The position numbers were made by a program, and so were the translations under genes. A DNA stretch of 63,228 nt, taken from assembly GCA_964404025.1 (NCBI GenBank), contig CAYOIJ010000005.1, positions 1 through 63,228 of the forward strand, given 5' to 3'. Each line of letters begins with the position of its first letter. Position 1 is the first letter of the stretch. The notes under the pieces were generated by a model. The model saw only the letters and a list, made by a program, of their open reading frames with translations, searched no databases and was not told the origin of the DNA. Source of the stretch: an uncultured Pseudomonadales bacterium (lineage in GTDB: Bacteria > Patescibacteriota > Microgenomatia > UBA1400 > PJMF01). Below are positions 3,673-63,228 of the stretch, in pieces.

Positions 3673-3746
3673 TGGACCTGAGGGAAATCGAATCCCTGAC
3701 CTCTGCAATGCGAATGCAGCGCTCTAGCCAACTGAGCTACAGGCCC
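3673..3746 (-). tRNA. tRNA-Ala(CGC), CCA not encoded
   Basis: GGGCCTGTAGCTCAGTTGGCTAGAGCGCTGCATTCGCATTGCAGAGGTCAGGGATTCGATTTCCCTCAGGTCCA; anticodon CGC; G3:U70 alanine identity pair. Confidence 0.96.
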
Positions 3747-11099: not shown

Positions 11100-11116
11100 A
11101 TGAACAACTGCAAAAT

Positions 11117-11144
11117 AGCCCCGTCTGCAAAGATGGGGCTTTTT
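11117..11144 (+). terminator. Intrinsic terminator
   Basis: AGCCCCGTCT-GCAA-AGATGGGGCT-TTTT. Confidence 0.8.
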
Positions 11145-11166
11145 CTTGTTTATTTCACAAAATAAA

Positions 11167-11370
11167 TTATTTTTCCAAAGGCATCACAATCCAAGCAATG
11201 ATGTAGGCCAAAAGACCTGGAAAACCACCTGGAATACAAGTTAGAGCAAAAATGAGGCGCACCAGCACTGGATCAATTTCAAAATAGTTAGCGATACCGC
11301 CAGCTACACCAGCAATTTTTTTATCAGTTTTGGAGCGAGTAAGACGCTTGACTGCTTTTTTTTGAGGCAT
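11167..11370 (-). CDS. pspC: PspC-domain membrane protein
   Basis: RLTRSKTDKKIAGVAGGIANYFEIDPVLVR...YIIAWIVMP. Confidence 0.9.
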   Translation of the reverse strand: MPQKKAVKRLTRSKTDKKIAGVAGGIANYFEIDPVLVRLIFALTCIPGGFPGLLAYIIAWIVMPLEK

Positions 11371-11404
11371 TTGATCTTTCTTTATTAATTATTAATTTCT
11401 TGAG

Positions 11405-12571
11405 ATGAATTATTATACCAGATCAAGTAAAATAGGCTTGATGGAAAAATTTAGTAATTATCAAGATTCAAAGACACTACTAGCTCAATTACCAGTGTTT
11501 ATGCCCGATGCCACCCTGGGCGTAGTACGAAGTTTAGGACCTAGCGATCTCCAAGAGATCGGTCTGGATTGGCTGATGGTTAACACCTACCACTTAATTA
11601 ATCAGCCAGGAGAAAAAATATTAAAAGAAGTGGGAGGTTTAAAAAAATTAATGAATTGGAATGGTTTTTTAGCTTCTGATTCAGGTGGTTTTCAACTCTT
11701 TTCTCTAATTCAAAAAAATCCTAATTTAGGAAAAATCACTGATGAGGGGGTAGTTCTATATACTGGGCCCAAAAAACAAAAGAAAAAACTCTTTACTCCA
11801 GAAGACTCAATTCGCCTACAATTTGCTATTGGTAGTGATATTAAAATTGTTCTTGATGATTTTAGTCCGCCAGAAGCAGATGAAACACGTCTAGGACAAA
11901 GTGTAAAGAGAACTATTACTTGGGCAAAGCGTGCAAAGGCTGAATTTGATAAACAACTCCAACAAAAAAAGAGCTTGGAGCCTCGTCCCCTACTTCTCGC
12001 TCCTATTCAAGGACATGATCAACAAAAATGGCGCCAATACTGCGCTGATGCTCTACTTGAAATCGGCTTTGATATTTATGGTTTAGGTGGCTGGCCACTT
12101 GACCAAAATGGTAAATTTGATTATCAGCTTTCTCAATTTAATGCCAATTTAACACCCCAGCAAAACCTTCGTTTTGCTTTGGGTGTAGGTAGTCTAGAAA
12201 ACATAGTTCAATTGTTTTTTATGGGTTACCAATTTTTCGACTGTGTCTTACCAACCAGAGATGCTCGCCACCAGCGACTTTATGTGTTTAAAACAGACCC
12301 TCAGCAACTAACTCAGAAAGACTTAAAAAAAATCAATAACAAGAAAAAGTTTGATCAGCTTTTTGACTACTTATATATCGGACAAGGAAAACATAAGACA
12401 GATTTACGAGTAATTAGTGAACACTGTGATTGTCCAATCTGCCAAAAAAATCAGATCAGTCGCGCTTATTTACACCACCTTTTTAAGGTAAAAGATAGTA
12501 GTGCTTGGCGCTTAGCAACTTTGCATAATCTTCGGACATTTAAGTTGCTGATTGAAATCTTACGAAGATAA
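11405..12571 (+). CDS. tgt: tRNA-guanine transglycosylase
   Basis: PVFMP, NTYHL, DSGGFQ, FDCVLPTRDAR, Zn site CDCPIC...HN. Confidence 0.92.
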   Translation: MNYYTRSSKIGLMEKFSNYQDSKTLLAQLPVFMPDATLGVVRSLGPSDLQEIGLDWLMVNTYHLINQPGEKILKEVGGLKKLMNWNGFLASDSGGFQLFSLIQKNPNLGKITDEGVVLYTGPKKQKKKLFTPEDSIRLQFAIGSDIKIVLDDFSPPEADETRLGQSVKRTITWAKRAKAEFDKQLQQKKSLEPRPLLLAPIQGHDQQKWRQYCADALLEIGFDIYGLGGWPLDQNGKFDYQLSQFNANLTPQQNLRFALGVGSLENIVQLFFMGYQFFDCVLPTRDARHQRLYVFKTDPQQLTQKDLKKINNKKKFDQLFDYLYIGQGKHKTDLRVISEHCDCPICQKNQISRAYLHHLFKVKDSSAWRLATLHNLRTFKLLIEILRR

Positions 12572-12632
12572 AACAAAAAGTATTTAAAATTTCATCACGC
12601 TTAGGGTCATTTTCTCTAGCTAAAATTAAAGG

Positions 12633-13343
12633 GTGCAACAACGATCAATTCCCACTTATCGTCCGAGAGAAAAACTTAATTATTCTGGCACTACCAGCCT
12701 GAGCAACGCAGAGCTGTTGGCTATTATTTTAAGCAGTGGTCATAAAAATTTGCCTGTTTTGGATCTGGCTAAAAAAATTCTAAAAAAATTTCCCCTAAGA
12801 CTATTGCATGAATTGTTTACTCTCAAGAAGTTAAGCCGAGAACAAGAATTACTTAAAGATTTGCAAAACATACCAGGGATTGCCTTTGCTCAGGCTACAA
12901 AAATTATCGCTGCTATTGAGTTGGGTAGAAGAAGTATTTTGGAATCAAATTCCACTCCGCTGCGCTCTCCCCTTCAAGTTTTTAATCACTGTTCAGACTT
13001 GAAAAGCAAAAAGCAAGAATACTGTCTAGCTTTTTTTCTCAATGGCCAACAAGAGTTGCTACTTAAAAAAATCATCACTATTGGCGGTTTAAACTTTAAC
13101 TATCTTGAAGGCCGAGAAATTTTTGAAATTGCTTTTCAACTCCAAGCCAGCAACCTAATTTTAGCTCACAACCACCCCTCAGGAAACCTAGAGCCATCCG
13201 CTAATGACTTATTAGTCAGTAAAAAGTTAGCCCAACTAGCAGAAGCCATGGGTATTAATCTTATTGACCATTTAATCGTTTCTCGTCAAGGATATTTCTC
13301 TATAAGAGAAGAGTGTGGAGATTTAAAAAAACTAAATTGCTAA
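12633..13343 (+). CDS. radC: RadC-family JAB protein
   Basis: RPREKL, LSNAELLAIIL, AHNHPSGNLEPSANDL, DHLIV. Confidence 0.93.
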   Translation: MQQRSIPTYRPREKLNYSGTTSLSNAELLAIILSSGHKNLPVLDLAKKILKKFPLRLLHELFTLKKLSREQELLKDLQNIPGIAFAQATKIIAAIELGRRSILESNSTPLRSPLQVFNHCSDLKSKKQEYCLAFFLNGQQELLLKKIITIGGLNFNYLEGREIFEIAFQLQASNLILAHNHPSGNLEPSANDLLVSKKLAQLAEAMGINLIDHLIVSRQGYFSIREECGDLKKLNC

Positions 13344-13372
13344 ATTCAAGTAAATAAAAACCCCAGCTAAAA

Positions 13373-14899
13373 TTAGATTTTTCTTATCAGCAGCTCGTTA
13401 TTTTCCATATCTAAAAGCTCAAAACCCTGTTCTTTAATTTCTGCTCGATACTCATCAGCTTCGGCAAAATTTTTTTCTTGACGAGCAATTTGGCGCTTTT
13501 CTATCAAGTTTCGCACTTGAGCTGGCAAGTCTGCCAAGCGCAAGCCCTCTGCTTCCAGACCCAGGCTTTGAGCCAAATCCGGATCAATTGTTTTTTTATT
13601 TAAAGATTGACGTAGAGATTTTAGCAAGAACTCTTCACTCAATCCTGCCAAACCTAATCCTAAAACCTGATCAAACTCCATAATTAATCGGTATAAAATA
13701 TCAGCTTCTAAATCACTCTTAAGCAATTCCCACAGCACTGTTAGCGCTTCATTTGTTTTTAAATCATTTTCTAGAGCTGCAAAAAAATCACTACGCAACT
13801 GCATTGCTCCTGGGAAATCATTTAGTTCAATTTCTCGGTTGTCTTTGTTAGCACGCAACTTCAACACAAAATAAGTTAATTTTAAATAAGCCTTGTGAGC
13901 GGCCTGCAAACTATCCCAGGTAAAATTCTGTTCACTGCGATAATGACTCATTAAAAACAATAGGCGTAGAGCCTTAGGTAAATAGCCCCGTTCAATAATA
14001 TTGTCTATGGTATAAAAATTGTTGAGAGATTTACTCATTTTTTTTCCCTCAACAAACAAATGGTTGTGATGCACCCAATAGCGACTAAAGGGCTTTTTGC
14101 CAGTTACAGCTTCAGATTGAGCTATTTCATTACTATGATGGACGTTAATATGATCAATTCCTCCAGTGTGGATGTCGATCTGATCTCCTAAGTGCTCAAT
14201 GGCCATGGCACTGCACTCAATATGCCAACCTGGAAAACTCCGTTCATGCCAGGGGCTGGGCCAAACCATTTGTCTATTTTCTCCTGGACGTTCAAATTTC
14301 CATAGAGCAAAATCAGTTGGGTTTTTGCGCCCAGGCACTTTATCTACTCGCTCACCTTCACGTTGCGCTGTTAAAACTTGCTTAGCTAGCTGGGGATCTT
14401 GATTGATTAACTTTCCATAATCATCAATTTTGCTAGTATCAAAATATACTCCATCACCCTCTATCACATAAGTTAGCTCTTTTTTTTCAAGTGCCAAGAC
14501 CATTTCTAGTTGAGCTTGAATGTGATCTGTAGCACGACAGCTAAGACTAGGACGTAATACTCCCAACAAATCCATACTATAAAAAAAATAATCTTCAAAA
14601 CGACGAGCTAGAGCTGTTGCGTCAGTGCCATATTTTTTGGCACCTTTTTCTAATTTATCTTCACCAACATCATCGTCACTAACCAAATGGCCAACATCGG
14701 TGATATTTTGTACATGTTTGACTTCATAGCCACCATGACGCAGTGTTCTCACTAAAACATCATCTAAAACATATTTTCGTAAGTGACCTAGATGGGTATA
14801 ATCATAAACAGTTGGACCACAAGCATACAATTTAACAAAATTTTCTTCTTGTGCTTGAAATTCTTCTATCGATCGCGAAGCGGTGTTGTAAAGTTTCAT
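13373..14899 (-). CDS. cysS: Cysteinyl-tRNA synthetase
   Basis: CGPTVY, HLGH, PGWHIECSAM, DIHTGG, KMSKS. Confidence 0.98.
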   Translation of the reverse strand: MKLYNTASRSIEEFQAQEENFVKLYACGPTVYDYTHLGHLRKYVLDDVLVRTLRHGGYEVKHVQNITDVGHLVSDDDVGEDKLEKGAKKYGTDATALARRFEDYFFYSMDLLGVLRPSLSCRATDHIQAQLEMVLALEKKELTYVIEGDGVYFDTSKIDDYGKLINQDPQLAKQVLTAQREGERVDKVPGRKNPTDFALWKFERPGENRQMVWPSPWHERSFPGWHIECSAMAIEHLGDQIDIHTGGIDHINVHHSNEIAQSEAVTGKKPFSRYWVHHNHLFVEGKKMSKSLNNFYTIDNIIERGYLPKALRLLFLMSHYRSEQNFTWDSLQAAHKAYLKLTYFVLKLRANKDNREIELNDFPGAMQLRSDFFAALENDLKTNEALTVLWELLKSDLEADILYRLIMEFDQVLGLGLAGLSEEFLLKSLRQSLNKKTIDPDLAQSLGLEAEGLRLADLPAQVRNLIEKRQIARQEKNFAEADEYRAEIKEQGFELLDMENNELLIRKI

Positions 14900-45135: not shown

Positions 45136-46320
45136 TTAGTTTTGCTCAATTTCTTGCAGAATAGCGGCTTTGACTTGCTCATTAAAACCACTAAAGGCTT
45201 GATCATTGATAAAAATGATTGGATAGTAGCCAAAGGTCTCAGACACCCCATGACTCTGACCATATTGTTTCTGATAGCGACTCAATAAACTAACAAAATC
45301 CTCGTCAGTTACTAAATGCTCCTGAATGGGATAGTCGATACTGTCAATAAACTCTAAGAATTGCAAGCACATCTCTCCTTGACCATTATGAAAAACCTTG
45401 AGGGTGTTTTTCTGCAGTTCAGGAATAAGCTCAATTTCGTCCAGTGGTACAGCTGGCTTTGGTTCAACATATTTAACCTCATCATTAAAAGGAATTTCGG
45501 CATAAGGTTGGCTAATTACTTGCGTGTCAGCCACCCAGTCATCGAAACTCTGCCAAGCAACTTGCTTGGAATTAATAGCATCTTCATAAACATCCCACCA
45601 ACCAACTCGAGTACCACCAATATAAACATGAGAAACTAAAACCATATCTCGAGGTTGTTGATCGATACTTTCTTGCAAAACTTGAGCAAAATCTTCAGCA
45701 GTGGAACCACGCTGATATAAGCTTACATCACAAAGCGAACCCGAACCCATCTCCCCAAAGACCAAATTTGAAACTGATAAAATCCGCACTTGATACTCCT
45801 GGGGGGCATAAATCACCGCTTTAATATCGCTGCCTCGCCCAAGAATATAAGGAATACCCAAGGCATCAGCCGCCTTGAGCGTGTTCTCATCATAAGCGAA
45901 GTATTTGGAACTAAAAATCTTAATCGGCTGACCCAAAATAGTTTCAGCAGATTCTTTATACTCCTTCATAATCTCATATTGCTCTTCATAAGGCATATTC
46001 CAAAAAGGTGCTTCACCGTAACCGGTTGCCACCTCATAACCCTTACTAGCTAAATTACGAAAATATTCTGGATGTTCCTCTAAAACTGCACGTTTTGGTT
46101 TAACAATGGCTTTAAAATCTTTGGTGTCTAAAACCTCTTCCCATTTGTAATAACCAGTAATATCGCCGCTGTTTTCACTCAAAAGCAAGATGCCATTGAT
46201 ACTTGGCTGTTGATTGGGGCGCCAAAAAGTTAAAATGAGGGCGGCTATGATTAAAACTATTATGGAAAAGAAAATAGGAGCAAATGAAAATTTTTTTTGG
46301 GGGGCAGTTTTTTTGGGCAT
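45136..46320 (-). CDS. Membrane-anchored polysaccharide-deacetylase-like protein with C-terminal thioredoxin/glutaredoxin-like domain
   Basis: GYEVAT...EEQYEIM...LGIPY NodB-like segment; C-terminal VFHNG..EMC...YPIIFINDQAFSGF. Confidence 0.55.
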   Translation of the reverse strand: MPKKTAPQKKFSFAPIFFSIIVLIIAALILTFWRPNQQPSINGILLLSENSGDITGYYKWEEVLDTKDFKAIVKPKRAVLEEHPEYFRNLASKGYEVATGYGEAPFWNMPYEEQYEIMKEYKESAETILGQPIKIFSSKYFAYDENTLKAADALGIPYILGRGSDIKAVIYAPQEYQVRILSVSNLVFGEMGSGSLCDVSLYQRGSTAEDFAQVLQESIDQQPRDMVLVSHVYIGGTRVGWWDVYEDAINSKQVAWQSFDDWVADTQVISQPYAEIPFNDEVKYVEPKPAVPLDEIELIPELQKNTLKVFHNGQGEMCLQFLEFIDSIDYPIQEHLVTDEDFVSLLSRYQKQYGQSHGVSETFGYYPIIFINDQAFSGFNEQVKAAILQEIEQN

Positions 46321-46385
46321 GATATCTCTCAATTAATTACTATATATTCATAATATACTCGAGTTGTTTATTATGTCAAGTTAAT

Positions 46386-46653: not shown

Positions 46654-47286
46654 TTAATTGCGTGCTGGATTGTATAAAGAGTCGTATGCAGGCGGACTAA
46701 AGGTTTTTTGGTATTTTGGGTTGGGATACCAAAGTCCCTCATCCAGGTCTGCTAAGCCATTAGGAAAATCCCTCAACAATGTTTTTTGGAAATCACTTAG
46801 CTTGAGCACCACTTTTTCTCGTTTAGCTATTTCAAGTAAGGCTAATAGCGCCTCTGCCTCACAAGCTAAGGCTCTGGTTTCAATTACTTCTTTATTGCGA
46901 CCATTAACTTGCCCACAAAAATAATCGCGGCACTGACTAATTGTTGAAGCTATTACACCGATTTGCTCTTCAGGTGAATAAGCAACCTTGCTTGTAAAGC
47001 TTTGTGGAATATACAGAGCTGGCGTTTCTACACCATTTTCAACATCAAGCATTAAAACCATATGATCGTATAGTTCTTCTTCAAAAAAGACTAAGGCAAT
47101 GTGTTCATCTTTTAGTAGACGAAACATAAAAGTACTTAATGAATTAATTGTCGAATTCGGAAAACGCTGATTGTCTTCTAAGTAAGCCAGGAAGTCATAA
47201 AAAAGATCTAAAACGGTTTTAGAATTTTTTTCATAATCTGGACTAACCCTCACTCTTTGGAACTCCTGTAAAGTTTCTTTAAGCAT
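46654..47286 (-). CDS. Hypothetical protein
   Basis: 210-aa ORF, no motif recognised. Confidence 0.6.
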   Translation of the reverse strand: MLKETLQEFQRVRVSPDYEKNSKTVLDLFYDFLAYLEDNQRFPNSTINSLSTFMFRLLKDEHIALVFFEEELYDHMVLMLDVENGVETPALYIPQSFTSKVAYSPEEQIGVIASTISQCRDYFCGQVNGRNKEVIETRALACEAEALLALLEIAKREKVVLKLSDFQKTLLRDFPNGLADLDEGLWYPNPKYQKTFSPPAYDSLYNPARN

Positions 47287-47289
47287 AAT

Positions 47290-47421
47290 TTAGTTTCTCC
47301 AAGTGCTAGTGTTATGCTTGCACTCTTTTTCTACATCAGCCTTGTGATTAGCCCCGCAAGATTTTGTAGGGACTTCGCGATCATGTTTTTCCACAATTTG
47401 CCTTACTGTTTCAATTTTCAT
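47290..47421 (-). CDS. 43-aa peptide (not in ORF track)
   Basis: MKIETVRQIVEKHDREVPTKSCGANHKADVEKECKHNTSTWRN; TG-a-TATATT 6 nt upstream; stop lies 3 nt before the next ATG. Confidence 0.45.
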   Translation of the reverse strand: MKIETVRQIVEKHDREVPTKSCGANHKADVEKECKHNTSTWRN

Positions 47422-47521
47422 GAAAGCAATATATCAAAAGAGCTCAGATTTGTAAAAAGCAAAGTAATTCTGAGAACCAGCAACTATATTTTAATCATTG
47501 CAATAATGATAATATTTTATT

Positions 47522-48676
47522 GTGAGAAAAATAGTCTTATACGTTGTTGCACTACTCACCACCACACTCTTTAGCTTGCTAATAATTGAGCTTGGTCTTC
47601 GTTTTTATGGACATCTAAAAGATATTGATTTTCGCATTTATCTCAAAGAAATAAAAAATTCTGATCGACTACCTCAAGAAATGTTTGACGAAGAAGAAGG
47701 TGGCTTTAGGGCTAATGCTAAGGTTTTGGCAGTTACTTCAGACTTCAGTGTTCAGTATTCATTTAATTCTAAAAAATTTAGAGACAAGGAATATTCTTAC
47801 AAAAAACCCCAAGATTACACTAGAATGGTCATGTTTGGTGATAGTTTTACCTTTGGGGAAGGCATCCCTTATGGCAAAAGGTTTAGCGATATTGCAGAAG
47901 AAAATATTGCCAAGCTAGAAATATTAAACTTCGGGGATCCTGGTATTAGCTTAGATGATATCGTCTACAGGGCGTTAAACGAAGGACTTTTGTTTGATCC
48001 TGATTATGTGGTGATTATTTTAAACAGATATGTAACTACCCGTGGACAAATTGATATCGAGATCCCTTATGAGGACTTCCTGCAAGAAAACCTAGAGATT
48101 AACAAGCAAAATAAAAACACCTCAGACACTGTTTATCTTAAGTACGATGACAAGTTTTTTGATTATAAACCCAATTTTATTCTCAAAAATTCTTATCTAG
48201 TCAGCTATTTGTACTATTACTTTTCAATGCTTAAATTAAGAGGAATTATGGAAGAGCATGATCAATCTTTCTGGGAAAGTGTTAATGGTTGGGATAAAGA
48301 TACGCGCAATCCGAGAAATATTAATCAAAGTGAAAGTAATGAAAAAATTCTCCTTAAAGAAAGAAATGTTTTGCTACTCAATAAACTTAATGAAATATGC
48401 CAAAAAATGGGAGTCAAGCTGGTGGCTATCAATATTGATTCCGAACCACTAACTTGCTTTTATGATGACAAACCCCCTTTCGAGTATTTTGACTTAAGTG
48501 AGAAAGTAAAAGAGGAAAGCAAAAAATACAATTTATCTTTCAAATACGACCATCACTACAATGAGAAAACAAATGAATTTCTAGGAAAAGAAATAACAAC
48601 CATCTTTAAGCTTCTTGTTTGCTCTCTACCTTCTGCTTCATGTGCTTCTCTGCATCTGAAACAAGGGTTTCCATAG
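47522..48676 (+). CDS. SGNH/GDSL-type membrane-anchored hydrolase/acyltransferase
   Basis: N-terminal TM, FGDSFTFG, NFGDPG, PDYV, YDHH. Confidence 0.8.
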   Translation: MRKIVLYVVALLTTTLFSLLIIELGLRFYGHLKDIDFRIYLKEIKNSDRLPQEMFDEEEGGFRANAKVLAVTSDFSVQYSFNSKKFRDKEYSYKKPQDYTRMVMFGDSFTFGEGIPYGKRFSDIAEENIAKLEILNFGDPGISLDDIVYRALNEGLLFDPDYVVIILNRYVTTRGQIDIEIPYEDFLQENLEINKQNKNTSDTVYLKYDDKFFDYKPNFILKNSYLVSYLYYYFSMLKLRGIMEEHDQSFWESVNGWDKDTRNPRNINQSESNEKILLKERNVLLLNKLNEICQKMGVKLVAINIDSEPLTCFYDDKPPFEYFDLSEKVKEESKKYNLSFKYDHHYNEKTNEFLGKEITTIFKLLVCSLPSASCASLHLKQGFP

Positions 48677-48803
48677 TAACATGCCTGGCATTATATCTTC
48701 CTACAATTTCTGTTGAACAGTAAAGCACAACAATATCGGTATCTGATTCATCTAAATGATAGCCTTCTGGAAGTTTTTGACTTGGTCTTTCTATTTCTGA
48801 CAT
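48606..48803 (-). CDS. Hypothetical protein
   Basis: SD AAAGGA; 65 aa; 3' overlap with the SGNH gene. Confidence 0.45.
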   Translation of the reverse strand: MSEIERPSQKLPEGYHLDESDTDIVVLYCSTEIVGRYNARHVTMETLVSDAEKHMKQKVESKQEA

Positions 48804-48887
48804 TATTTATCCTTTAAATAATAAATAAGACTTTTATTGTATCAGATTCTTAGCAAATTGAAAAAAATAATGTATCTTTTAACTTCA

Positions 48888-49511
48888 TTAGAATTTATTT
48901 TTTATAATTCCCTCTATCACAAAATCAAATTTACTCTTTGGCATTATTTCTTGAAAATAGTAATCCTCTACCCCATCCCATTTGGAGTGCCAGTCTTTCA
49001 TAAATTCTTCTCCCTCTCTTTCAACCAGCCTTTTTTTTCGTTCTTGATCCTCAAGTTCAACTAAAACAAAAATATCAATTAAATCCCAAAGCTTTTCTGC
49101 CGAATAGATGCCGTCAATAATAACTAGCGGAGCTTTTTGAAGAAAAACGCTCTCTTCTGATAAACCTCTTTCCTTCTTAAAATCAAAAGGATGATAGCTT
49201 GCATCTTTACCATGCAACAAGAGCTTTAAAACCTCAGTTCTCAATCTTTGATAGTCAATCACTTGATTAAATTTTTCTAGCACTGTCTTTTTATGCCAAT
49301 TTTTTTCATTGCCGTTTTCAGCACCAGCATAAAAATCATCACAGTTTACAATTGCTGCCTTGAATTCTTTTGCCAAAAGTGAAGATATTGTTGATTTTCC
49401 AACCCCACTTCTTCCATCAAGAGAAACAACTACTATTTTTTGCTTGACTAGTAGTTTTTCAATTTTTCTAATCAGGTCAGATAGTAAATGTTGTTTTTTC
49501 TTATTACGCAT
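48888..49511 (-). CDS. Uridine kinase-like P-loop kinase
   Basis: DGRSGVGKST, DDFY, IIDGIYS, RLVERE. Confidence 0.8.
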   Translation of the reverse strand: MRNKKKQHLLSDLIRKIEKLLVKQKIVVVSLDGRSGVGKSTISSLLAKEFKAAIVNCDDFYAGAENGNEKNWHKKTVLEKFNQVIDYQRLRTEVLKLLLHGKDASYHPFDFKKERGLSEESVFLQKAPLVIIDGIYSAEKLWDLIDIFVLVELEDQERKKRLVEREGEEFMKDWHSKWDGVEDYYFQEIMPKSKFDFVIEGIIKNKF

Positions 49512-49589
49512 ACATTATTAATACCAATCTATTCGTATTATAATAAATCAGTGAAAATTATTAAATATTTAAGAGAAAATATAAGAAAA

Positions 49590-51090
49590 ATGCTGGTTGA
49601 TTATTCTTCAAAAAAGAAAGCAAGAACTATTTTATTAGAACTTATTTTACTCATATTACTTTTAATTATATTAAAAAATAGACTAGTAAACCTTTATATA
49701 AACATCAGTTATCAATTTCAAAGAGAATATCGTGATGGAGCTATTATTGATATTGCCAACGAATTTAAAAATTTGCAAAATCCTTTTACTTTTGACCGAG
49801 GCTTACCTCATACTTATACTTACGGCCTTATACCCCCTCTTATAACTGGAATGGTGGGTCGCATAACAAACTTTAGCTTACAAGATATTCAACATGTTTC
49901 TTCATGCTTATTAATAATGTTAACATCGTTGATTATTGGCTTATTTTCTTGGAAAAACACTAAAAACTTAATAATAAGCATTAGCGCTTTGCTTATTCCA
50001 TTACTGTTTAACTCTGTAGGTCTGAGGCCAGAAGTCTATGCCATTTTTTTAACTGTTCTCAGCTTAAGCTTAGTACAAAACGATGATAAAAAATCTGCTC
50101 TGTGGGTTTCACTGGGTGTTTTGAGTATTTTACTTTATTATATTAAGCCTTATTTCGTCCTGCTGTGGGCTGTTTTTATTTTATCTATTCTTACTAAAAA
50201 AGCCCAAAAACATCATTGTCCCATTCATTGTATCTTCTATTAGCTTTGCTTTAACATCATTTTTTTTGATTAATTCTATTTTTCCGCTTTATTTTCCTCA
50301 TACCTTTATTAACCACTTAAATTTATATAGTAATCATAATTTTCATTATATGATTCGACAATTTTCTGATTTTTTTATAAATAATTGGTCAATTTCTTTG
50401 GCCTTCTTTTTTTATACTGCTTATTCATTGCTTTTTAATCCTAAAGCCTTAAAGAGTGTTTTCTTCATCTACATAATTTTTTCCTTGATCAGTCTAGTAT
50501 TTATAGCTCAACATACTGGTACATACCTCACTTACTACAATCAATTGTTAACAATACCCATAATATTATTCATTGCTTGGCAATATAAAAAACCAACAAA
50601 TAAAATATTGAATTTTATGCAATACTTTTTAATTATTGCGATTATTATTAACTATCGTTATTTTTTACAAAAAAATAGTATCGGAGTGAGGAGTAGTGAA
50701 AACTGGAATAAGGCGGTCGAGTACATACAAGCAAACAATCCAAAAACCTCCTATCTTTCACCACATTTTGTCAATCTTGCTATTGAATATGCGTGGCCAA
50801 TATATGATAACGGACAAACTGAATTTTTTATCTATAGTGAAATATCAACAAATAAAACAAAATTATTTAGATATGTTTTCCCTCAAGCTCTACTTGTTAG
50901 AGATCATTTTATCAATTGGCGGCAAGAGCTTAATGAAAAAATAGAAAATAAATATTTTTCAATCATTGTCTTGCCAAAAAACAATTATCCCTTAATAAAT
51001 GAGCGCATACTAAAAACTAATTACTATCTTGATTACACAATCGATCTACCGATTAATTTAGGAAATATATATTTCTGGAAAGCAACTTAG
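49590..51090 (+). pseudogene. Multi-TM GT-C-like glycosyltransferase, frameshifted at A6 tract (50196-50201)
   Basis: ORFs 49488..50243 and 50266..51090 join as ...ILTKKPKNIIVPFIVSSISFALTSFFLINSIF... if one A is removed; YRDG and RPE motifs with many TMs. Confidence 0.7.
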
Positions 51091-51109
51091 CATTTTTCAA
51101 CTTAGTCAA

Positions 51110-51427
51110 TATTTTTCACCTAAGTTTTCGTCTGGTATATCAGGTGTTCTAATAGTTCTTGGAAAAATTCAAAAATTGACGGCGAATTTAAGCTCTGAGG
51201 AAAACAATCTATGCGTAATAATAGCCACTAATCTGGTAGAAACAAAAGGCACAAAAACTCCCTTGCTATGGCAATATGTTTTACACAAAGATCTTCAACG
51301 AGCTGAAGAACTATTTCCTATTATCCAAAGTTTGACAACTTTGATGGCCGATCTGGTCGAAAAAAATATTGATATTGAAGAATACTCAATAATGATTAAT
51401 AATATTTTTAAAGAAAATCATAAGTAA
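51110..51427 (+). pseudogene. Probable 5'-truncated gene remnant
   Basis: Frame of the TTG-started ORF 51176 stays open back to the previous stop region with no ATG or SD. Confidence 0.35.
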
Positions 51428-51455
51428 TTTTAATACTTACTTTCTCTCAACAAAA

Positions 51456-51708
51456 TTACTTCATTTTCTCTAGGTATTTCTCAATATACTCTATTAACTC
51501 TTCTTTTAATAGAGCGGCTGAAGCGTTAATAGACTCACCTCTTTCAAGAATTCTTTTATCAAGTGATCCACTACCATTAGAACCCAAGTAGTTTTGTATC
51601 GCACATTGAGTTATGTCGTCTCCATTTGCACCCTTGAGTGAAAGCAATGTTCCCTCGATTTTTTCTGAATCACTGGTACTGGCAGCTATGATCTCATCAA
51701 AAGGAAGC
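51456..51708 (-). pseudogene. 5'-truncated remnant
   Basis: Frame extends LPFDEIIAASTSDSEKIEGTLLSLKG... back to an in-frame TAG with no ATG. Confidence 0.4.
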
Positions 51709-51877
51709 TAGATTGGCTAGAGATGAAGAAGTAGAAAGAATTCTAAATGAAGCGGGAGTAGCACTTCTTCGTATTGAAAATCGTGCTATTTTCGATAAAC
51801 ATGATCTACTAACAAGTATTAAAGAAAAACTAGGCAATCCGCCCATCTCTGAGTACTCAACGCTCAAAGGCAGTTGA
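51692..51877 (+). pseudogene. DUF2726-like C-terminal remnant
   Basis: SHQKEARLARDEEVERILNEAGVALLRI resembles the DUF2726 SH...R..RD...AG..LLR motif; preceded by in-frame TGA. Confidence 0.55.
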
Positions 51878-52027
51878 TGAATTAATTTATGAATTAAAAA
51901 AAACTGACCCTCTCCTTAAATAATTTAAAAAATATCAAAAAGATTTAAAGCATTTCTTAAATTTTTTTACACAACCCTCAAACATCTATTGCTTGCATCT
52001 TATATTTAAAATAGCTAGAATTAAAAT

Positions 52028-54511
52028 ATGCAAGAAACATCCGATGTTTCTCCCCAAATCGCTAATGAAGAATTAAATTCAAACGGTAGTGACAACAATC
52101 AACAAGCAGAACCAACAAGTCAAGAGACAAAACCTCAAAACAAAAAAAAGAAATTGCTTTTTATTCTCATTACTTTAATTCTTCTTGGTCTCTTAGTGTT
52201 TATTGTTTCATCTTTCTTTACTCCTCAAAATAAAGTTAATATCTTAACAAATAGTCGAGGGTATTCTTTTCCAAGCGATCAAGAATTACAAATTGCTATC
52301 GCTGAAACATTCGCCAATTACCCATTAGAAACTAGTTTTGTGGAGTTTCAAGTTCCGGCCTATGAAATTGGGCCAGCTAATTTAACTAACTTAGCCAACT
52401 TTGAAGAAAAAAATAAACAAGTCTTTAGTGAATCGCAAGTTGCTACTCTGACCAAGCAACATTTCTTTGTTCAAGAAAATTTAGATGTTTTTTATAGTTT
52501 AGATCCTAACGATTATGCTAGTAGACTTGATGATTGGTCAGCACTATATAGCAAAATTAGAGGTGGCTCTATTTATGATCGTGCACCAGAAAACTCAGTT
52601 TTTATTACTAGTGATTATTTATTACATATTTATTACAAATTACTATCCAAACAACTAGAATATTTGGAACAAACCCAACTTTATGCTGACTTACTAAGCC
52701 TAACTGACTATTTATATAGTAAATCTGTTGAAAATTACCAAAATAGTAATGATTCAGAAAATCAAGAGAGTTTTGCTCGATTAACAGCTTATTTTGCCAT
52801 ACCAAAAGCAATCTTGAATGCAGTTCGAGTAAATCATGAGTCAGAAATATTTATTGATGATCAGAGTGATAGTCGAGAGCAAATTGAAGCTCAATTATTA
52901 TTGCTCAGCGATCAATTAAGCCCAGAAATCTATCAATTAGCTTTAGAAGAATTAAATTTATTAATGAGCGCTGAATCAGCTCAAGCCTCTCCCCTATTTG
53001 GAGAGCTGATTAATCAAGCAAATCTTGAATACTTAACGGATTACTCACAATTCCAAGCTCGAAGTCACTATACTCGTAACGCTATTTTACGTTCTTATTT
53101 CCGGGCAATGACCTGGTATGGTCAAAACAATTTTTTGCTACAGAGTGAAGGTTTAACTAGAGATGCTATCAACATTTCACTGTTGTTTGCAAAGGCAGGA
53201 GATGAAGAAATGTATACTAAATGGGCTAATATGGGTCAAGTAATTGCCTTTTTAGTTGGCCCTCGTGATGATCTAAGCTTAGGTGAATACTTAACTAGTC
53301 TTAAAAATTTCAGCCAGAATCAACTGCAAGTTGATGAGCAATTAATTAAACAAGTACAAGATAGTTTAGCCACTGCTGATGGGCCTCAAATTATGTCAAC
53401 CCTAGTATTTGGCGATGAAGTTTTTAATTTAAAAAAGGAAGAGCTTCAAGCAAAAACAAAAGGTTTTCGCTTAATGGCTCCTCGTTTTACTCCAGACGCT
53501 TTTATTTTTACTAATCTTACCCAGGGTAACGAATTAGCAGATGAAAAAACTGGAGAAAAACTACCTAGCTACACAACACCTTTATTAGCCATGTCAATCT
53601 TCGGTAATAATTTAGCTAATGATTTAAGTAAAAAATGGATTGAGAGTAATGCCTCACAATCAAAAAATGTTCTAGCAGACCGACTTAATACACTCGATCA
53701 ATACTTTAGTGAAAAAAATGAAAAAGATTGGACGAATAACCTTTACTGGTCATGGCTTTATACTCTCAAAGCCTTATTTAAAGATTACAGTGCAGATAAT
53801 TATCCAATGTTTATGAAGAAACCAGCCTGGCAAAACAAAAACTTACAAACTGCCCTCGGCTCTTGGACTGAATTGAAACACGCTACCCTGCTTTATGCTA
53901 AACAATCTTATGCCGAAATGGGAGCTGGAGGTGATACTGAAGAAATTCCTCCCGTGCCTAAGGGTTATGTTGAGCCAGACATTGAATTTTTTGATCGTTT
54001 GCTAGCTCTTAGCAAGATGACTGTTAATGGCTTGAGTCAAAAGGGTTTAATGGATGATGTCTTTTTAGGTAGGCATGAGTCACTTATTGAAGCACTTGAG
54101 TTTTTTAGAGAAATTGCTATTAAACAGCTGGCTAATGAAATAATTAGCGATGATGATTTTGAAGAGCTAAGAACCACCGCTGATAGTTTTGTGTGGTCAG
54201 TACTCCACCCCTTACCTGGAGAAGAATACACTGAAGACCATGTCCGATCTGCCATTGTCGCTGATGTTCACACTGATGGGCTCCGCCAAAAAATCTTATA
54301 TGTAGCCAATGGCATTCCCAACTATATATATGTAGCGGTCAGTGACATTAACGGGACACGTTTGACCAAAGGTTTAACTTATTCATACTATGAATTTGAA
54401 AATGATCTAGGTAAAAGACTTACCGATCAAGATTGGCGCCAACTCAATTACACTCAAGACAAGTCTCAGCTGCCAAATATGCCTGATTGGAACTCTAGCC
54501 TAATTAAGTAG
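52028..54511 (+). CDS. DUF3160-family membrane-anchored protein
   Basis: FITSDYLLH, DYSQF.ARSHYT, YFRAMTWYG, LQTALGSWTELKHATLLYAKQ, GYVEP, ADVHTD, SYYEF. Confidence 0.85.
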   Translation: MQETSDVSPQIANEELNSNGSDNNQQAEPTSQETKPQNKKKKLLFILITLILLGLLVFIVSSFFTPQNKVNILTNSRGYSFPSDQELQIAIAETFANYPLETSFVEFQVPAYEIGPANLTNLANFEEKNKQVFSESQVATLTKQHFFVQENLDVFYSLDPNDYASRLDDWSALYSKIRGGSIYDRAPENSVFITSDYLLHIYYKLLSKQLEYLEQTQLYADLLSLTDYLYSKSVENYQNSNDSENQESFARLTAYFAIPKAILNAVRVNHESEIFIDDQSDSREQIEAQLLLLSDQLSPEIYQLALEELNLLMSAESAQASPLFGELINQANLEYLTDYSQFQARSHYTRNAILRSYFRAMTWYGQNNFLLQSEGLTRDAINISLLFAKAGDEEMYTKWANMGQVIAFLVGPRDDLSLGEYLTSLKNFSQNQLQVDEQLIKQVQDSLATADGPQIMSTLVFGDEVFNLKKEELQAKTKGFRLMAPRFTPDAFIFTNLTQGNELADEKTGEKLPSYTTPLLAMSIFGNNLANDLSKKWIESNASQSKNVLADRLNTLDQYFSEKNEKDWTNNLYWSWLYTLKALFKDYSADNYPMFMKKPAWQNKNLQTALGSWTELKHATLLYAKQSYAEMGAGGDTEEIPPVPKGYVEPDIEFFDRLLALSKMTVNGLSQKGLMDDVFLGRHESLIEALEFFREIAIKQLANEIISDDDFEELRTTADSFVWSVLHPLPGEEYTEDHVRSAIVADVHTDGLRQKILYVANGIPNYIYVAVSDINGTRLTKGLTYSYYEFENDLGKRLTDQDWRQLNYTQDKSQLPNMPDWNSSLIK

Positions 54512-54524: not shown

Positions 54525-55424
54525 ATGAAAAAAATATTTTGGATTATTGCTCTTTTGTTACTTGGACTTGCTGGAGCTTTGGGTTTTCTTAGTTTAAAAT
54601 CCAGATTTTTTATTAAAAACGAGCCAATAATCGAATCTTTAAATCAAAAAACGGAAGTTTTCCTCACTAGTCCCTATAAACAATTAAGTTTATACGAGAA
54701 AGCATTTGCTTCCGTGGAAAAAAAAGAAAAAAAGCTGGTTTCTGCTGGCATCACTTCTCATCATTTTTTAGCTAAAAATTTCATTGCTGATTTCTTTCAA
54801 GGAATTGACAAGAATAACATTGAGCGAGTCATTCTAATTAGTCCTGATCATTTTAATTACAGCATTAACGATCAAACTCTGGCCCACTCTAGCCTACTTA
54901 ACTGGCAAACAGCATTTTCAATTTTGAACAGCGATCAAGATTTAATTGAGAAATTATACGAACAATCTTTAATTACTCTAAAAGATACAGGTTTTCGCAA
55001 TGAACATGGTATCTATACTCTTGTACCTTTTATTAAATATTCTTTTCCCCAGGCAAGCATCCTACCTCTGATCTTAAATCCAAAAAAAACTGATTTAGAA
55101 TTTTTCAGTTTTGGTCAAACTCTTAAACAAGAGCTTGACTCCTCAAGCACTCTATTAATTGTTAGTAGTGACTTTTCTCACGGCCTGAGTTTGGAAAAAA
55201 CTCAGCAAGCAGACCTACAAAGTATTGAAACACTAGAAAAACTTAGTTTAGAAAATTTAAGAAAAGTTAATTGTGATTGTCCTGCCTGCCTAGCTTTTTT
55301 ACTAGGTTATCTGGATGGTGGGGATTATCAGCTTGAGTTAATTGATAATAAAAATTCGGCTGATTTTAGTGAAAAAAATCAAGAAACTGTAACCAGCTAC
55401 GTAAACGCTTATTTTTTACCTTAG
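54525..55424 (+). CDS. MEMO1/AmmeMemo protein B-like, N-terminally anchored
   Basis: GITSHH, ISPDH, EHGI, SSDFSH, CDC. Confidence 0.85.
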   Translation: MKKIFWIIALLLLGLAGALGFLSLKSRFFIKNEPIIESLNQKTEVFLTSPYKQLSLYEKAFASVEKKEKKLVSAGITSHHFLAKNFIADFFQGIDKNNIERVILISPDHFNYSINDQTLAHSSLLNWQTAFSILNSDQDLIEKLYEQSLITLKDTGFRNEHGIYTLVPFIKYSFPQASILPLILNPKKTDLEFFSFGQTLKQELDSSSTLLIVSSDFSHGLSLEKTQQADLQSIETLEKLSLENLRKVNCDCPACLAFLLGYLDGGDYQLELIDNKNSADFSEKNQETVTSYVNAYFLP

Positions 55425-55448
55425 CTTCTATTTATTAGCTTCTATTTA
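55421..55448. repeat. Perfect 14-bp tandem duplication
   Basis: TTAGCTTCTATTTA x2, including the MEMO gene stop codon. Confidence 0.85.
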
Positions 55449-55459
55449 CTAAATAGTTT

Positions 55460-55597
55460 TTAAATTATTTTAATTGGTTCTGGACTATCTGTGTAGGTAG
55501 CTACAGTATCATCAAAAACTATTTGCGCAATAAAATCAACAAAAGAATCTGGCGAAGCTTGTTCTGCTACAAAATTTGTTTCTTTTGGCTTTGGCAT
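55460..55597 (-). CDS. 45-aa acidic peptide (not in ORF track)
   Basis: MPKPKETNFVAEQASPDSFVDFIAQIVFDDTVATYTDSPEPIKII. Confidence 0.35.
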   Translation of the reverse strand: MPKPKETNFVAEQASPDSFVDFIAQIVFDDTVATYTDSPEPIKII

Positions 55598-55660
55598 AAA
55601 TATTCTACAAAATATATCAAAATATCTTGATGTAGGGCGGGAAGGATGTTAGAACTTGAT

Positions 55661-56110
55661 TTATGTCTTCACAAATACATTTATTGTGACTCTGTGTAGA
55701 TCACCTATAGTTTCACTTTCCTCTGGGTTTGTATTTAAATTTTTGGAAAATGGTTCTATAGTCATTTCTTCAATATTCGCTCCTCCACCCAAAAGCATTC
55801 TTGTAATTTTTAAGCTTTTATAAAGAGATTCATTCCTAAATATCATTTTTTTACCCACTCTCTCAACGTACTGAAGAATCCCTTGTTTAATCAAAGTTCT
55901 TCTGGTTTCTGGCTCAATAATCGCCTGGAATTTAATTAACTGTCCAGTTCCTATAGCTTTAATAAAAGCTTCAACTAATTTTTTTCCCTGTCCGCATTGA
56001 TGTGACTCAAGCTCTTCAACGACATAACACTTATTTTTTTTATCATAATAATACTGAAGATCAGCCTGCTCAATCATAAAAATTAATGGGTAACCTTCTC
56101 TTTCAATCAT
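55661..56110 (-). CDS. Hypothetical protein between the repeats
   Basis: 149 aa; TG-c-TAAAAT 6 nt before ATG. Confidence 0.6.
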   Translation of the reverse strand: MIEREGYPLIFMIEQADLQYYYDKKNKCYVVEELESHQCGQGKKLVEAFIKAIGTGQLIKFQAIIEPETRRTLIKQGILQYVERVGKKMIFRNESLYKSLKITRMLLGGGANIEEMTIEPFSKNLNTNPEESETIGDLHRVTINVFVKT

Positions 56111-56335
56111 TGAAGTATTTTAGCAGAGTCTAAAAGTGATTAATATTTTTTATTGGAGTCTTGAAAAAATGATTATACCAAAATTTATATTTGCAGGGCG
56201 GGAAGGAATCTACGACTCGCCTATTTATATTTTCTGTAGGTTGGCTCGCATGCACTAGGCGGGTGACTCGCTTTACTCGCCACTCGCCGGCGGAACCCAG
56301 CGCTACGCATAGGCTTGATCATTCTCCACCACACA

Positions 56336-56376
56336 AAATATAAAAAAATCCAGCTCTGCTGGAATTTTTTATATTT
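56336..56376. terminator. Long bidirectional hairpin
   Basis: AAATATAAAAAAATCCAGC-TCT-GCTGGAATTTTTTATATTT, 18 of 19 positions pair. Confidence 0.75.
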
Positions 56377-56483
56377 GCAGGGAGCAATGGAAGCTATTCG
56401 AACCTATTATCTAGAAGGTAATCTCTTTCCAGTTCTTGATCTAAATAGAAAGTAATATAAAAAGTAAAAAGAAAGGAATCCAA

Positions 56484-56840
56484 ATGGGATACGATTTAAC
56501 AAACAATAGAGGGGAAGATTTCCGCTTTAGTATATATGGATGGTCTCAAATCCAAAGACTTGCTATAAAGTACGGTTGGGAGCCGTTAGGAACAGAGCCC
56601 CCAGAACATTATAAAGAAAAAGATAAGAAAGAATGGTCGGGTAATTATAATACAAATGATTGGCAATATGTAACAAAAGAAGATTCAAAAAATATGGCAA
56701 AAGCTTTAACATTTGCTTATTATGATCTACCAAAAATGGAGATAGAACCAGATCCAGTTATATTTTTTTCTGGAGATTCAAGAAATACAATAAAAGAATT
56801 TATAGAGTTTATTAAAGACGCTGGTTTTTGTATATCGTAA
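56484..56840 (+). CDS. Conserved-looking hypothetical protein
   Basis: SD AAGGA; MGYDL...YGWEPLGT...YNTND. Confidence 0.65.
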   Translation: MGYDLTNNRGEDFRFSIYGWSQIQRLAIKYGWEPLGTEPPEHYKEKDKKEWSGNYNTNDWQYVTKEDSKNMAKALTFAYYDLPKMEIEPDPVIFFSGDSRNTIKEFIEFIKDAGFCIS

Positions 56841-56925
56841 TTATAAAAATATCTGGAATTCAAATCATTTCTATTAAGGTAAATGATAGACATTGCTTTC
56901 GCTATTTTAAAGACATAGCAACTCT

Positions 56926-58494: not shown

Positions 58495-58537
58495 TATTTT
58501 TTAAATATAAACCTGTCAAAGTTGTATAATGAAAAAT

Positions 58538-60058
58538 ATGACCAATCAACCTATTTCCTCATTACAATTGTTAAAAGAATATCAAGCAAGCGATTTAAAC
58601 TACGAGCTCCCAGTTGTCCTAGGAAAAAATGCAGAGGGAAAAGCGGTATTTGCCGATTTAGTTGAGCTAGAACATATTTTAATGGCTGGCGCAACTGGTT
58701 CTGGAAAATCAACTTTTGAACTTAGCATTATCGCAACTTTCACTAAACTTTTCTCCCCCACTCAGCTTAAGTTTTTTCTAGTGGATATGAAAAGAGTGGA
58801 ACTTACTCTTTTAACAAATTCCGCTCATTTATTAGCCCCAGTTGCTGTTAGCTATAACGGTGTTTTTAAACATCTTGAATGGATTAAAAAAGAAAAAAAT
58901 AATCGACTAAAAAGTAATAAACTTGGATTAGAGACACTTCCTTACATCATTGTTGTTATTGACACTTTTTCTGATTTAATACTTCATAATTCAGCAGAAT
59001 TTCAAAAACAAATTACAGAAACAACAAAAAACGCAGCAAAAGTAAAAATTCATTTTATAATGTCCGATTCAAGATGTTGTCCTGTTAACTATACACCTTC
59101 TATCAAAGCTTCTTTTCCTACTAAAATATGCTTTAATACTGCTTCTGTAGTTGATTCAAAAACACTTATTGGTGTTGGGGATGCCGTCAATCTAAAAGGA
59201 AAAGGCGATATGTTGCTACTCTACCCCAAAAAAAAGCAAACGATAAGGCTACAAGCGCCGTTTATTTCCAGACAAGAAATTTATACCATAGCCAATCAAG
59301 CTATTTCTTTATCTAAATTATTAAAAGAATACGAAGTAAGCAATTTAAACTACGAGCTCCCCATTGTCTTAGGAAAAAATACAGAGGGAAAAACTATATT
59401 TGCTGATTTATTTGAGCTAAAACACATTTTAATGGCTGGACAAACTGGCTCTGGAAAATCAGTTTTTCTTCAACAACTGATCTGGACATTAGTTCCAAAA
59501 TTTCCCCCAGATAAGCTAGAACTTCTTTTAATTGACATGAAAGTAGTAGAATTTAGTCGATATAAAAAATTACCTCATTTAATTACAAATCCCATTACAA
59601 ATAGTGGATTGGCTGTTGAGTGGCTTACAAAGATACTTGATAAGAAAAAAAGAAGCAAAACAAAAAAACGCAATACCGTTATCTTTATTGATACATTTTC
59701 AGACATTATGTACTCTGATTATGGCGAAGAGTTTACTAAATTAGTAAATGAAATAATTCTAAAGGGTTCGAGCTTGGGAATTTATCTTTTAATGTGTGAC
59801 TCTAGAGTGAGTAAAGAAGTATTTGATAAATCATTTACTTCAGGGTTTAAAACCAAAATATGTTTTAAGGTAATGGATGAAGAAGCTTCAATTAGAATTA
59901 TTAATTCTAGTGCTGGAATAGATCTTTTAGGAAAAGGCGACATGCTGTTATTAATGGAAAATCATAAAGACCTCATTAGACTTCAAGCTCCATGGATTTC
60001 CTCTGAAGAGATTAAAGAGATTATGGAAAAAATTCATAATTATGAACATTTATCTTGA
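58538..60058 (+). CDS. Protein of two tandem FtsK ATPase domains, no TM or gamma domain
   Basis: AGATGSGKS and AGQTGSGKS; LVDMKRVEL and LIDMKVVEF; two GKGDML motifs; 750-bp period. Confidence 0.88.
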   Translation: MTNQPISSLQLLKEYQASDLNYELPVVLGKNAEGKAVFADLVELEHILMAGATGSGKSTFELSIIATFTKLFSPTQLKFFLVDMKRVELTLLTNSAHLLAPVAVSYNGVFKHLEWIKKEKNNRLKSNKLGLETLPYIIVVIDTFSDLILHNSAEFQKQITETTKNAAKVKIHFIMSDSRCCPVNYTPSIKASFPTKICFNTASVVDSKTLIGVGDAVNLKGKGDMLLLYPKKKQTIRLQAPFISRQEIYTIANQAISLSKLLKEYEVSNLNYELPIVLGKNTEGKTIFADLFELKHILMAGQTGSGKSVFLQQLIWTLVPKFPPDKLELLLIDMKVVEFSRYKKLPHLITNPITNSGLAVEWLTKILDKKKRSKTKKRNTVIFIDTFSDIMYSDYGEEFTKLVNEIILKGSSLGIYLLMCDSRVSKEVFDKSFTSGFKTKICFKVMDEEASIRIINSSAGIDLLGKGDMLLLMENHKDLIRLQAPWISSEEIKEIMEKIHNYEHLS

Positions 60059-63166: not shown

Positions 63167-63228
63167 ATTAATGGTTTTTAAAAACCTTTCTTGTGAATAA
63201 AATTAGACAGTAAGTGGAAGAAAAATAA

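Follow-up and report, generated by a model that had tools for sequence, protein, structure and literature searches.

Cis-mobilisable elements (CIMEs) of the Streptococcus ICESt1/ICESt3 family are flanked by attachment (att) sites, have no recombination genes, share a gene 3' end, in tandem, with a larger element and could be moved by a related integrase acting in cis or in trans. The pdif (Xer-dependent) modules of Acinetobacter plasmids and the integrative mobile elements exploiting Xer (IMEX) are small modules with short sites, for which the recombinase is encoded elsewhere in the genome. To our knowledge, very little is known about gene gain and loss in the small genomes of uncultivated bacteria of the Candidate Phyla Radiation. 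In the present analysis, a 63,228-nucleotide stretch of DNA from an uncultivated Microgenomates-like bacterium (GCA_964404025.1, the entire contig CAYOIJ010000005.1, hereafter the window) has been examined, and contigs from other samples and species, designated by L-numbers, have been used for comparison. The region between a Memo-like gene of the window and a tRNA-Trp gene just beyond its right edge probably represents site-specific accretion at the 3' end of the tRNA, mostly of CIME-like cassettes devoid of a recombinase, next to a larger element of ~7.37 kb (E1).

Tandem units anchored at a small RNA gene have been described as the ssrA islands of Dehalococcoides, each of which is bounded by a 20-bp direct repeat of the ssrA 3' end; these islands are several kb or longer (cargo of ~7 kb is mentioned), sixteen have a serine-recombinase module (DsiB/DsiA) beside attL, and some units without an integration module have been read as cis-mobilisable (PMC3146451). 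The present locus shares with them a single-copy small-RNA anchor, tandem units, 3'-end repeats (7-19 bp here) and strong strain variation, whereas most of its units comprise one or two genes in 0.2-1.3 kb, no unit with a recombinase was found, and its repeats are not exact but have diverged, with indels. Like CIMEs, its units are flanked by att-like sites, lack recombination genes and stand in tandem with a larger element at a gene 3' end; however, no helper integrative and conjugative element (ICE) or integrase was seen, E1 encodes FtsK-like proteins and neither an integrase nor a relaxase, the cassettes are far smaller, and they occur in an uncultivated Microgenomates-like bacterium. The locus is reminiscent of integrons in that mostly single-gene cassettes are stacked in order and in the same orientation at a fixed site, each closed by a short site-like motif, with sets that vary among strains. 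In contrast to integrons, no intI gene lies beside the site (the neighbour of the tRNA encodes an ATP-grasp protein, and the 11 kb on that side and the 63 kb on the opposite side contain no integrase), no attC-like hairpin is present in the end motifs, the anchor is the end of a tRNA gene, and each cassette has its own predicted extended -10 box instead of a common Pc promoter. A preliminary description of the window had proposed an integron-like outcome without attC sites. Small gene modules bounded by short recombination-type sites are also typical of pdif modules and IMEX, but the sites here, by inspection, are not of the 11-6-11 type with inverted arms, point in the same direction instead of alternating, and are found at a tRNA rather than at dif.

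A hot spot at a tRNA end is already a known kind of locus, and what is unusual here is the presence of tiny cassettes with no recognisable recombinase nearby. The features that set it apart from the tandem-island and CIME pattern are the tiny self-promoted cassettes, the diverged ~30-nt end motif, the lack of any recombinase found in ~75 kb and the host lineage. The locus turns over among strains with 99.8-100% identical flanking genes, its joints are clearly marked, and its cassettes go down to a single gene. If the enzyme were found, a group without genetic tools would gain a defined docking site together with a recombination signal, and it would become clear whether integron-like cassette capture arose more than once; if the enzyme proved to be an ordinary phage-type integrase whose gene lies elsewhere, this would be a tidy but ordinary tRNA-linked island stack.

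The tRNA-Trp anchor and its tRNA-like repeats

The right-most open reading frame (ORF) of the window, of 175 amino acids (aa), was used to find longer contigs from other samples that extend the sequence to the right. Contig L003 is 99.9% identical to the last 736 nt of the window, and L001 is 98.2% identical over 6.85 kb. Both contain the intact minus-strand tRNA-Trp gene that the preliminary description had predicted to the right of the window, ~520 nt beyond position 63228. The gene end reads ...GAGGGTTCGATTCCTTCCCGCCCTGCA and is followed at once by GAAATGG, at window-equivalent position ~63744 (L001, L003). The 3' end of the tRNA gene, GGTTCGATTCCTTCCCGCCCTGCA, matches copy B of the repeat discussed below at 19/19 positions and copy A at 15/16. 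The 295-aa gene upstream of it is 100% identical on 42 contigs. Within the window itself, a tRNA-Ala at 3672-3746 is the only tRNA gene (ARAGORN/Rfam), and no tRNA or other known RNA was detected at 55300-56900 by ARAGORN, or by Rfam even at E<=10. The following features form the basis of the analysis:

63745-63816 (window-equivalent; L001 9351-9422, L003 789-860), minus strand: intact tRNA-Trp(CCA)
55646-55631, minus strand: copy A, TCCTTCCCGCCCTACA, preceded by GTTCTAA
56210-56192, minus strand: copy B, GATTCCTTCCCGCCCTGCA, equal to tRNA-Trp positions 57-73 plus the next 2 nt
56392-56376, minus strand: copy C, TTCCATTGCTCCCTGCA, preceded by GGTTCGAA
55631..55657, minus strand: end motif of copy A, which closes the 149-aa cassette, AAGTTCTAACATCCTTCCCGCCCTACA, with T-loop-like GTTCTAA and core CCCTACA
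56376..56405, minus strand: end motif of copy C, the right (attR-like) end of E1, AGGTTCGAATAGCTTCCATTGCTCCCTGCA
56376 to ~63744 (in the window to 63228), minus strand: element E1, ~7.37 kb, abutting the tRNA-Trp 3' end

A repeat search of the window placed the three copies in a single family with spacings of 561 and 184 nt, and a 16-mer, TGCAGGGCGGGAAGGA, occurred twice with <=3 mismatches vs 0.12 expected, a number reached in 1/100 shuffles. The three minus-strand copies, their sequences and the stretches that precede them are all as first described, and the fit of copy B to tRNA positions 57-73 is exact and extends over 2 nt 3' of the gene. The acceptor stem of the tRNA is GGGGCGG/CCGCCCU, with a G1.U72 pair and discriminator G73, according to an Rfam alignment of the orthologue in L131 (63 bits) and the same-species sequence; the A1-U72 identity pair invoked earlier is thus not that of the real tRNA-Trp.

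A ~30-nt tRNA-derived end motif, GTTCTAACATCTTYCAYCARTCCCTGCA, is common to different one- or two-gene units. The pattern GTTC(T/G)AA...CTT(Y)C...CCCTGC(A/C) closes unrelated cargos at end D of L001, in L139, in L140 and at copies C and A, and is decayed in L131. The motifs outside the window are:

L001, end D: AAGTTCTAACATCTTTCACCAATCCCTGCA
L140: AAGTTCTAACATCTTCCATCAGTCCCTGCC
L139: ACGTTCTAACATCTTCCACCAGTCC, where the contig stops
L131: TAGTTCTAACCTTTGCCACCAGTCCCCAGA, decayed, behind a kinase gene

The motif of copy C recurs in L155 with one mismatch, and the E1 variant of L155 and related contigs is 89-92% identical. Motifs C and D have a 7-nt core and the GGTTCGA and CTTCC blocks in common with the tRNA. 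Relative to the tRNA end, ends of the C/D type have 5 additional nt and copy A has 2, and C and D are unable to pair with the acceptor strand GGGGCGG. Since the acceptor stem could not be restored by them, C and D are not tRNA alleles, and the idea that the repeats represent different tRNA-Trp alleles has been abandoned. The series from tRNA to A, D/L140 and C has the appearance of a single sequence that diverged through substitutions and indels of 2-5 nt, and the end motifs are therefore derived from the tRNA. An exchange at or beside the last 7 nt (CCCTGCA) implies that the tRNA itself is never altered. In L164, a copy of the 149-aa gene (87% identical) has another upstream neighbour, and the start of the motif, without the core, stands right after its stop codon; because the motif start stays with the gene in this other context, the end motif belongs to the cassette. 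No attC-like hairpin was detected in four end-motif regions (single-stranded DNA fold z-scores -1.06, +0.62, -1.16 and -0.61).

Several other candidates were discarded. The end motif is not a Xer/dif-like site, its arms not being inverted by inspection; a scan of the 16-mer TCCTTCCCGCCCTRCA across genomes returned mainly chance matches in unrelated phyla, the useful exceptions being L060 and L070, by which the organism is placed close to Candidatus Microgenomatus; and viral contig L135 matched the cassette-end pattern within a coding region, probably by chance. In addition, TAGGTTCGAACTTAGCTAAAGTGCTAGGTTC at L001 9477-9505, ~55 nt past the tRNA in the left end of E1, resembles the start of a C-type motif and may be a decayed further joint.

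Turnover of the slot behind tRNA-Trp

Starting at 63228, contigs L001 and L002 remain colinear with the window until exactly 56376, the final A of CCCTGCA in copy C, and are unrelated beyond. Past this joint come a leader, in which CTGACACATTATGATATAAT... precedes a hairpin and GAAAGAAAAAATG, the 225-aa gene and end D, CAAGTTCTAACATCTTTCACCAATCCCTGCA. The same joint recurs in L148 and L149 (which are the L001 and L002 contigs), L153 and L154, i.e., in four independent samples, and the arrangement of the window was found again in SRR8925721, SRR8925811 and JGI 3300044603.

The DNA directly behind tRNA-Trp was surveyed at ten places that could be read after ...CCCTGC(A), all of which share the tRNA and the 295-aa gene upstream of it at 100% identity. 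Six forms were present:

Form 1: E1 (L136, L138)
Form 2: 225-aa cassette without E1 (L144)
Form 3: 252-aa cassette with a leader 90-95% identical (L139)
Form 4: two-gene unit of 235 + 158 aa (L140)
Form 5: junction to the middle of the Macro gene of E1 (L141)
Form 6: YgjP-like gene, truncated (L143)

The upstream flanks of the slot variants are 99.8-99.9% identical. In L144 the tRNA is followed by the leader and the 225-aa gene, and in L136 by E1 up to copy C and then by the same leader and gene, with flanks 99.8% identical; E1 is therefore a precise 7.37-kb insertion. L141 corresponds to L136 minus 11038-14229, with one deletion end at the tRNA core and a 7-nt overlap of the joined stretches, and L143 shows a second truncation anchored at the same core. 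Three more contigs end at or inside the tRNA-Trp 3' end, and in many samples the assembly breaks off exactly at a core or at the tRNA end (L010, L137, L142, L152), as is to be expected where joints are repeated and polymorphic. The preliminary description had named identical cassette content across strains as the outcome opposed to its proposal; content differs between strains, with the breakpoints at the repeats.

Two observations concern the first bases of the cassettes. The 8 nt after the core differ sharply in L139, L144, L001, L150 and L151, although the leaders are otherwise 90-95% identical; the variants are AAGATACG, AAGATACA, CTGACACA, CTGACTTA and (CCCTGC)TCGACACA, and this divergent stretch beside the core may be the strand-exchange region. 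A possible signature of cassette starts, AAGATACATTAT, was rejected, as it is present at two unrelated intergenic sites too and is not significant.

Between copies C and B, the window has a further unit with two parts:

56336..56376, no strand assigned: two-way intrinsic terminator hairpin with 19-nt arms, 95% complementary (palindrome and terminator scoring)
56211..56335, no strand assigned: GC-rich non-coding segment, up to 62% GC against ~33% GC in its surroundings, forming the interior of a ~185-bp insert whose end is copy B

Its origin becomes clearer from L131, a related species with a flanking protein 64% identical and the order ATP-grasp gene, tRNA-Trp, variable slot, Memo and DUF3160. 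Directly after its tRNA come a near-identical terminator hairpin, a ~130-nt GC-rich segment, a second exact GATTCCTTCCCGCCCTGCA, a promoter with a P-loop kinase gene and the decayed motif. Because the near-identical hairpin stands right after the tRNA there, the terminator behind copy C is that of tRNA-Trp itself, displaced by E1. A non-coding palindrome had been noted between these two copies; it is present, and the unit as a whole consists of the native tRNA terminator and a small GC-rich insert. The ~185-bp insert is made up of the terminator, the GC-rich segment and the 19-mer; without E1, it would be flanked by a 27-nt direct repeat (the 19-mer plus AATATAAA), and its identity block begins inside the T-loop. 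Judging from this layout, the GC-rich insert is probably a remnant of another element family with a crossover in the T-loop, which would explain why it must restore all 19 nt of the tRNA end. The GC-rich segments of the window and L131 align solely at their ends and at GCATGC. Single-sequence folds of both copies have z of about -4 on both strands, and the consensus fold, based on two sequences only, is weak (-7.5 and -9.4 kcal/mol on the two strands). The stretch was also considered as a known RNA (signal recognition particle RNA, 6S, a tmRNA piece or an intron-bearing tRNA), with no Rfam match in the window or L131. The segment of the window contains GCGAGT four times, GCGAGC and a central GCATGC, and that of L131 (1385-1527) contains CCGAGCGA twice, a hairpin with an 11-bp stem and the shared central GCATGC, exactly at which two assemblies break; these repeats could be protein-binding (arm) sites or part of an RNA.

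The third unit is the 149-aa cassette, followed by the distal flank:

55661..56110, minus strand: 149-aa cargo gene of cassette 3, of unknown function, between copies B and A
56180-56172, minus strand: extended -10 box TGGTATAAT, whose TATAAT hexamer begins 14 nt after the last base of copy B
55619-55611, minus strand: -10-like box TGATATATT, 14 nt after copy A
55460..55619, minus strand: distal flank, containing the -10-like box and behind it a 45-aa ORF, and reaching to the convergent Memo-like gene
54525..55424, plus strand: Memo-like gene and, after it, DUF3160 (52028-54511), which form the conserved chromosomal limit of the variable region

A -10 box also lies 14 nt after the cores in L001, L139 and L144, and TGGTATAAT is predicted to be the cassette's own promoter. 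Copies A and B accordingly bracket, as first described, an ORF at 55661-56110 together with a predicted -10 box. The distal flank is unchanged in 7/7 contigs that carry the 45-aa ORF.

Proposed site-specific capture and its alternatives

In the mechanism we favour, the interval from the Memo-like gene (55424) to tRNA-Trp would be a hot spot into which foreign segments were inserted serially at the extreme 3' end of the tRNA, each unit ending in a motif derived from that end, with the 7-nt core CCCTGCA (CCCTACA in copy A). Read in the sense of the tRNA, the order in the window is tRNA-Trp, E1 with copy C, the native terminator and the ~185-bp GC-rich mini-insert with copy B, the 149-aa cassette with copy A, the 45-aa ORF and the conserved flank. 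The joints would have been made by a site-specific recombinase acting at or beside CCCTGCA; since all cores point in the same direction, such an enzyme could also delete and re-insert cassettes, giving integron-like turnover. It might be supplied in trans or have been lost, and most units would then be cis-mobilisable, CIME-like passengers. Repeated site-specific capture of cassettes, as first proposed, is borne out as far as a stack of separately inserted or exchanged units with joints at the repeats is concerned, whereas its allele component was wrong and its recombinase is unproven. A bolder version is possible but on the whole doubtful: the tRNA-Trp 3' end may serve as an attI-like dock and GTTCTAACATCTTYCAYCARTCCCTGCA as an attC-like site, the tiny self-promoted cassettes being moved about by a recombinase whose gene lies elsewhere in the genome and which may be of an unrecognised family; the locus would then be an integron-like capture platform in the Candidate Phyla Radiation with an evolutionary origin independent of integrons.

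Several results weigh against site-specific capture. No integrase, resolvase or transposase was identified by Pfam/PHROG scans of the 56 window ORFs, E1, the cassettes of other strains and the genes beyond the tRNA, nor did any turn up when the six frames of the window and the same-species loci were scanned for motifs. The preliminary description had expected one to the right; 11 kb past the tRNA were scanned and only an ATP-grasp enzyme, DUF6938, rpmG, tRNAs, secE-nusG-rplK and similar genes were present. Scans of viral contigs with the 19-mer and the end motif returned no real match, and no excised circle or attP was seen. The motif lengths are unequal (C/D +5 nt, A +2 nt), so that a single binding geometry is not obvious, and the order of decay, with copy C the most diverged yet closest to the tRNA, does not fit a simple serial displacement of tRNA ends. 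The 225-aa and 252-aa cassettes have a common ~85-nt leader and unrelated ORFs, which suggests some exchange inside units and not solely at the cores. Moreover, a breakpoint at the conserved tRNA end is also expected from a homologous swap, and therefore the six slot variants alone are no proof. As no unit seen encodes a recombinase, the enzyme would have to act in trans (from elsewhere in the genome or a transient helper) or to have been lost.

A few proteins were examined as hidden recombinases and rejected. The 295-aa protein beside the tRNA gave an ATP-grasp model (predicted local distance difference test, pLDDT, 76; D-Ala-D-Ala ligases, E about 1e-5), the 280-aa protein of E1 is an FtsK motor instead, and the 198-aa and 175-aa proteins of E1 belong to no Pfam/PHROG family and match no PDB chain by sequence.

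The main rival is homologous replacement after DNA uptake, in which the region would be a replacement island exchanged by homologous recombination in the conserved tRNA and upstream flank and in the downstream flank, the repeats being old inert scars with no dedicated recombinase today. In its favour, DprA and RecR are encoded in the genome, breakpoints where a selected, conserved tRNA ends are what this model predicts, the 225-aa and 252-aa units are alike in leader and tail and not in the ORF, and no recombinase was found in the sequences scanned. We nevertheless consider it unlikely, because it leaves unexplained why unrelated cargos carry a tRNA-derived motif in the same orientation with the same 7-nt core, how E1 came to be a precise core-bounded insertion, why one end of each of the two independent deletions (L141, L143) falls exactly on the tRNA core, and how the motif moved with the 149-aa gene to another context. 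Target-specific transposition at the tRNA-Trp end, with the repeats as 7-bp (CCCTGCA) target-site duplications rather than att sites, would suit E1 and the D-type cassettes, for which unbroken identity to the tRNA before the joint is just 7 nt, as well as the short inverted AATGGA that the two termini of E1 have in common. However, copies A and B match the tRNA over 15-19 nt, far above a target duplication, the T-loop-like GTTCGA and CTTCC blocks are shared with the tRNA beyond the 7 nt, and neither a transposase nor convincing terminal inverted repeats were found, which makes transposition very unlikely.

It could also be supposed that the repeats are a regulatory GC-rich box at the -35 position (an operator or alternative sigma site) and that their likeness to a tRNA is incidental, an explanation not exclusive of site-specific capture. 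At copies A and B, CGCCCT lies 17 nt upstream of TATAAT/TATATT with a TG extension, and the constant 14-nt spacing extends to L001, L139 and L144. Yet copy B agrees at 19/19 positions with the end of the tRNA gene and the 2 nt that follow it, a terminator and not a promoter follows copy C in the window, the strain breakpoints fall at the cores, and the box is a poor -35 element, which extended -10 promoters do not need; we regard this explanation as highly improbable. Finally, the frequent stop of contigs at these sites would be accounted for if the copies were chimeric assembly joins or remains of tandem tRNA-Trp duplicates. Such an origin is scarcely credible, given that the arrangement of the window recurs in the three independent samples named above and the alternative arrangement in four, and that the copies lack the 5' tRNA halves expected of pseudogenes (ARAGORN and Rfam negative).

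Genes of E1, the cassette and the flanks

E1 encodes proteins of 118 aa, 280 aa (FtsK-like), 198 aa, 509 aa (double FtsK) and 139 aa, a Macro protein, proteins of 119 aa and 86 aa, an HD protein and a protein of 175 aa. A DUF6994 fragment of E1 just outside the window, beside the tRNA, is 92 aa long and matches positions 1-83 of a 226-position profile, which suggests an earlier core-anchored deletion like those of L141 and L143; such a deletion could have taken out an integrase gene. The 509-aa protein (58529-60058, plus strand) has two tandem FtsK/SpoIIIE motor domains, and 58542-58711 is 85% identical to 59292-59461 (170 nt), which points to a recent internal duplication in its gene. Both FtsK-like genes are missing from the E1 variants of L155 and L156.

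For the 149-aa protein, no fitting Pfam or PHROG family was found. Its predicted model is of high confidence (pLDDT 91), with no PDB match better than E 0.2, and it belongs to a family of ~38 representative proteins of ~150 aa without a Pfam domain. Assignment to GNAT was rejected, the fold match being too weak and non-significant (E 0.4-0.9, template-modelling score 0.37-0.43). A distant homologue, P0046, was also set aside, as it lies in an ordinary operon without an end motif.

The left 47 kb of the window are of a housekeeping character (DnaB, HisRS, RF, SSB, TGT, CysRS, RecR, Tmk, ThyA, DprA, MreC, Def, Fmt and a sigma factor). L155 3-620 resembles window 45779-46384, so that a homologue of the 398-aa gene of the window (45136-46332) lies <=2.6 kb past the right end of a diverged E1, and the block with Memo and DUF3160 down to ~47 kb may itself be variable between lineages. 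A 207-aa P-loop kinase gene of the window (48888-49511, minus strand) has 80% DNA identity to the gene that fills the L131 slot behind tRNA-Trp; the kinase gene is inside the variable slot in the L131 lineage and 6 kb outside it in the window lineage. It falls in a stretch, 47000-52000, with a GC content of 28-32% and several membrane or unknown proteins without a Pfam match, which may be another acquired block.

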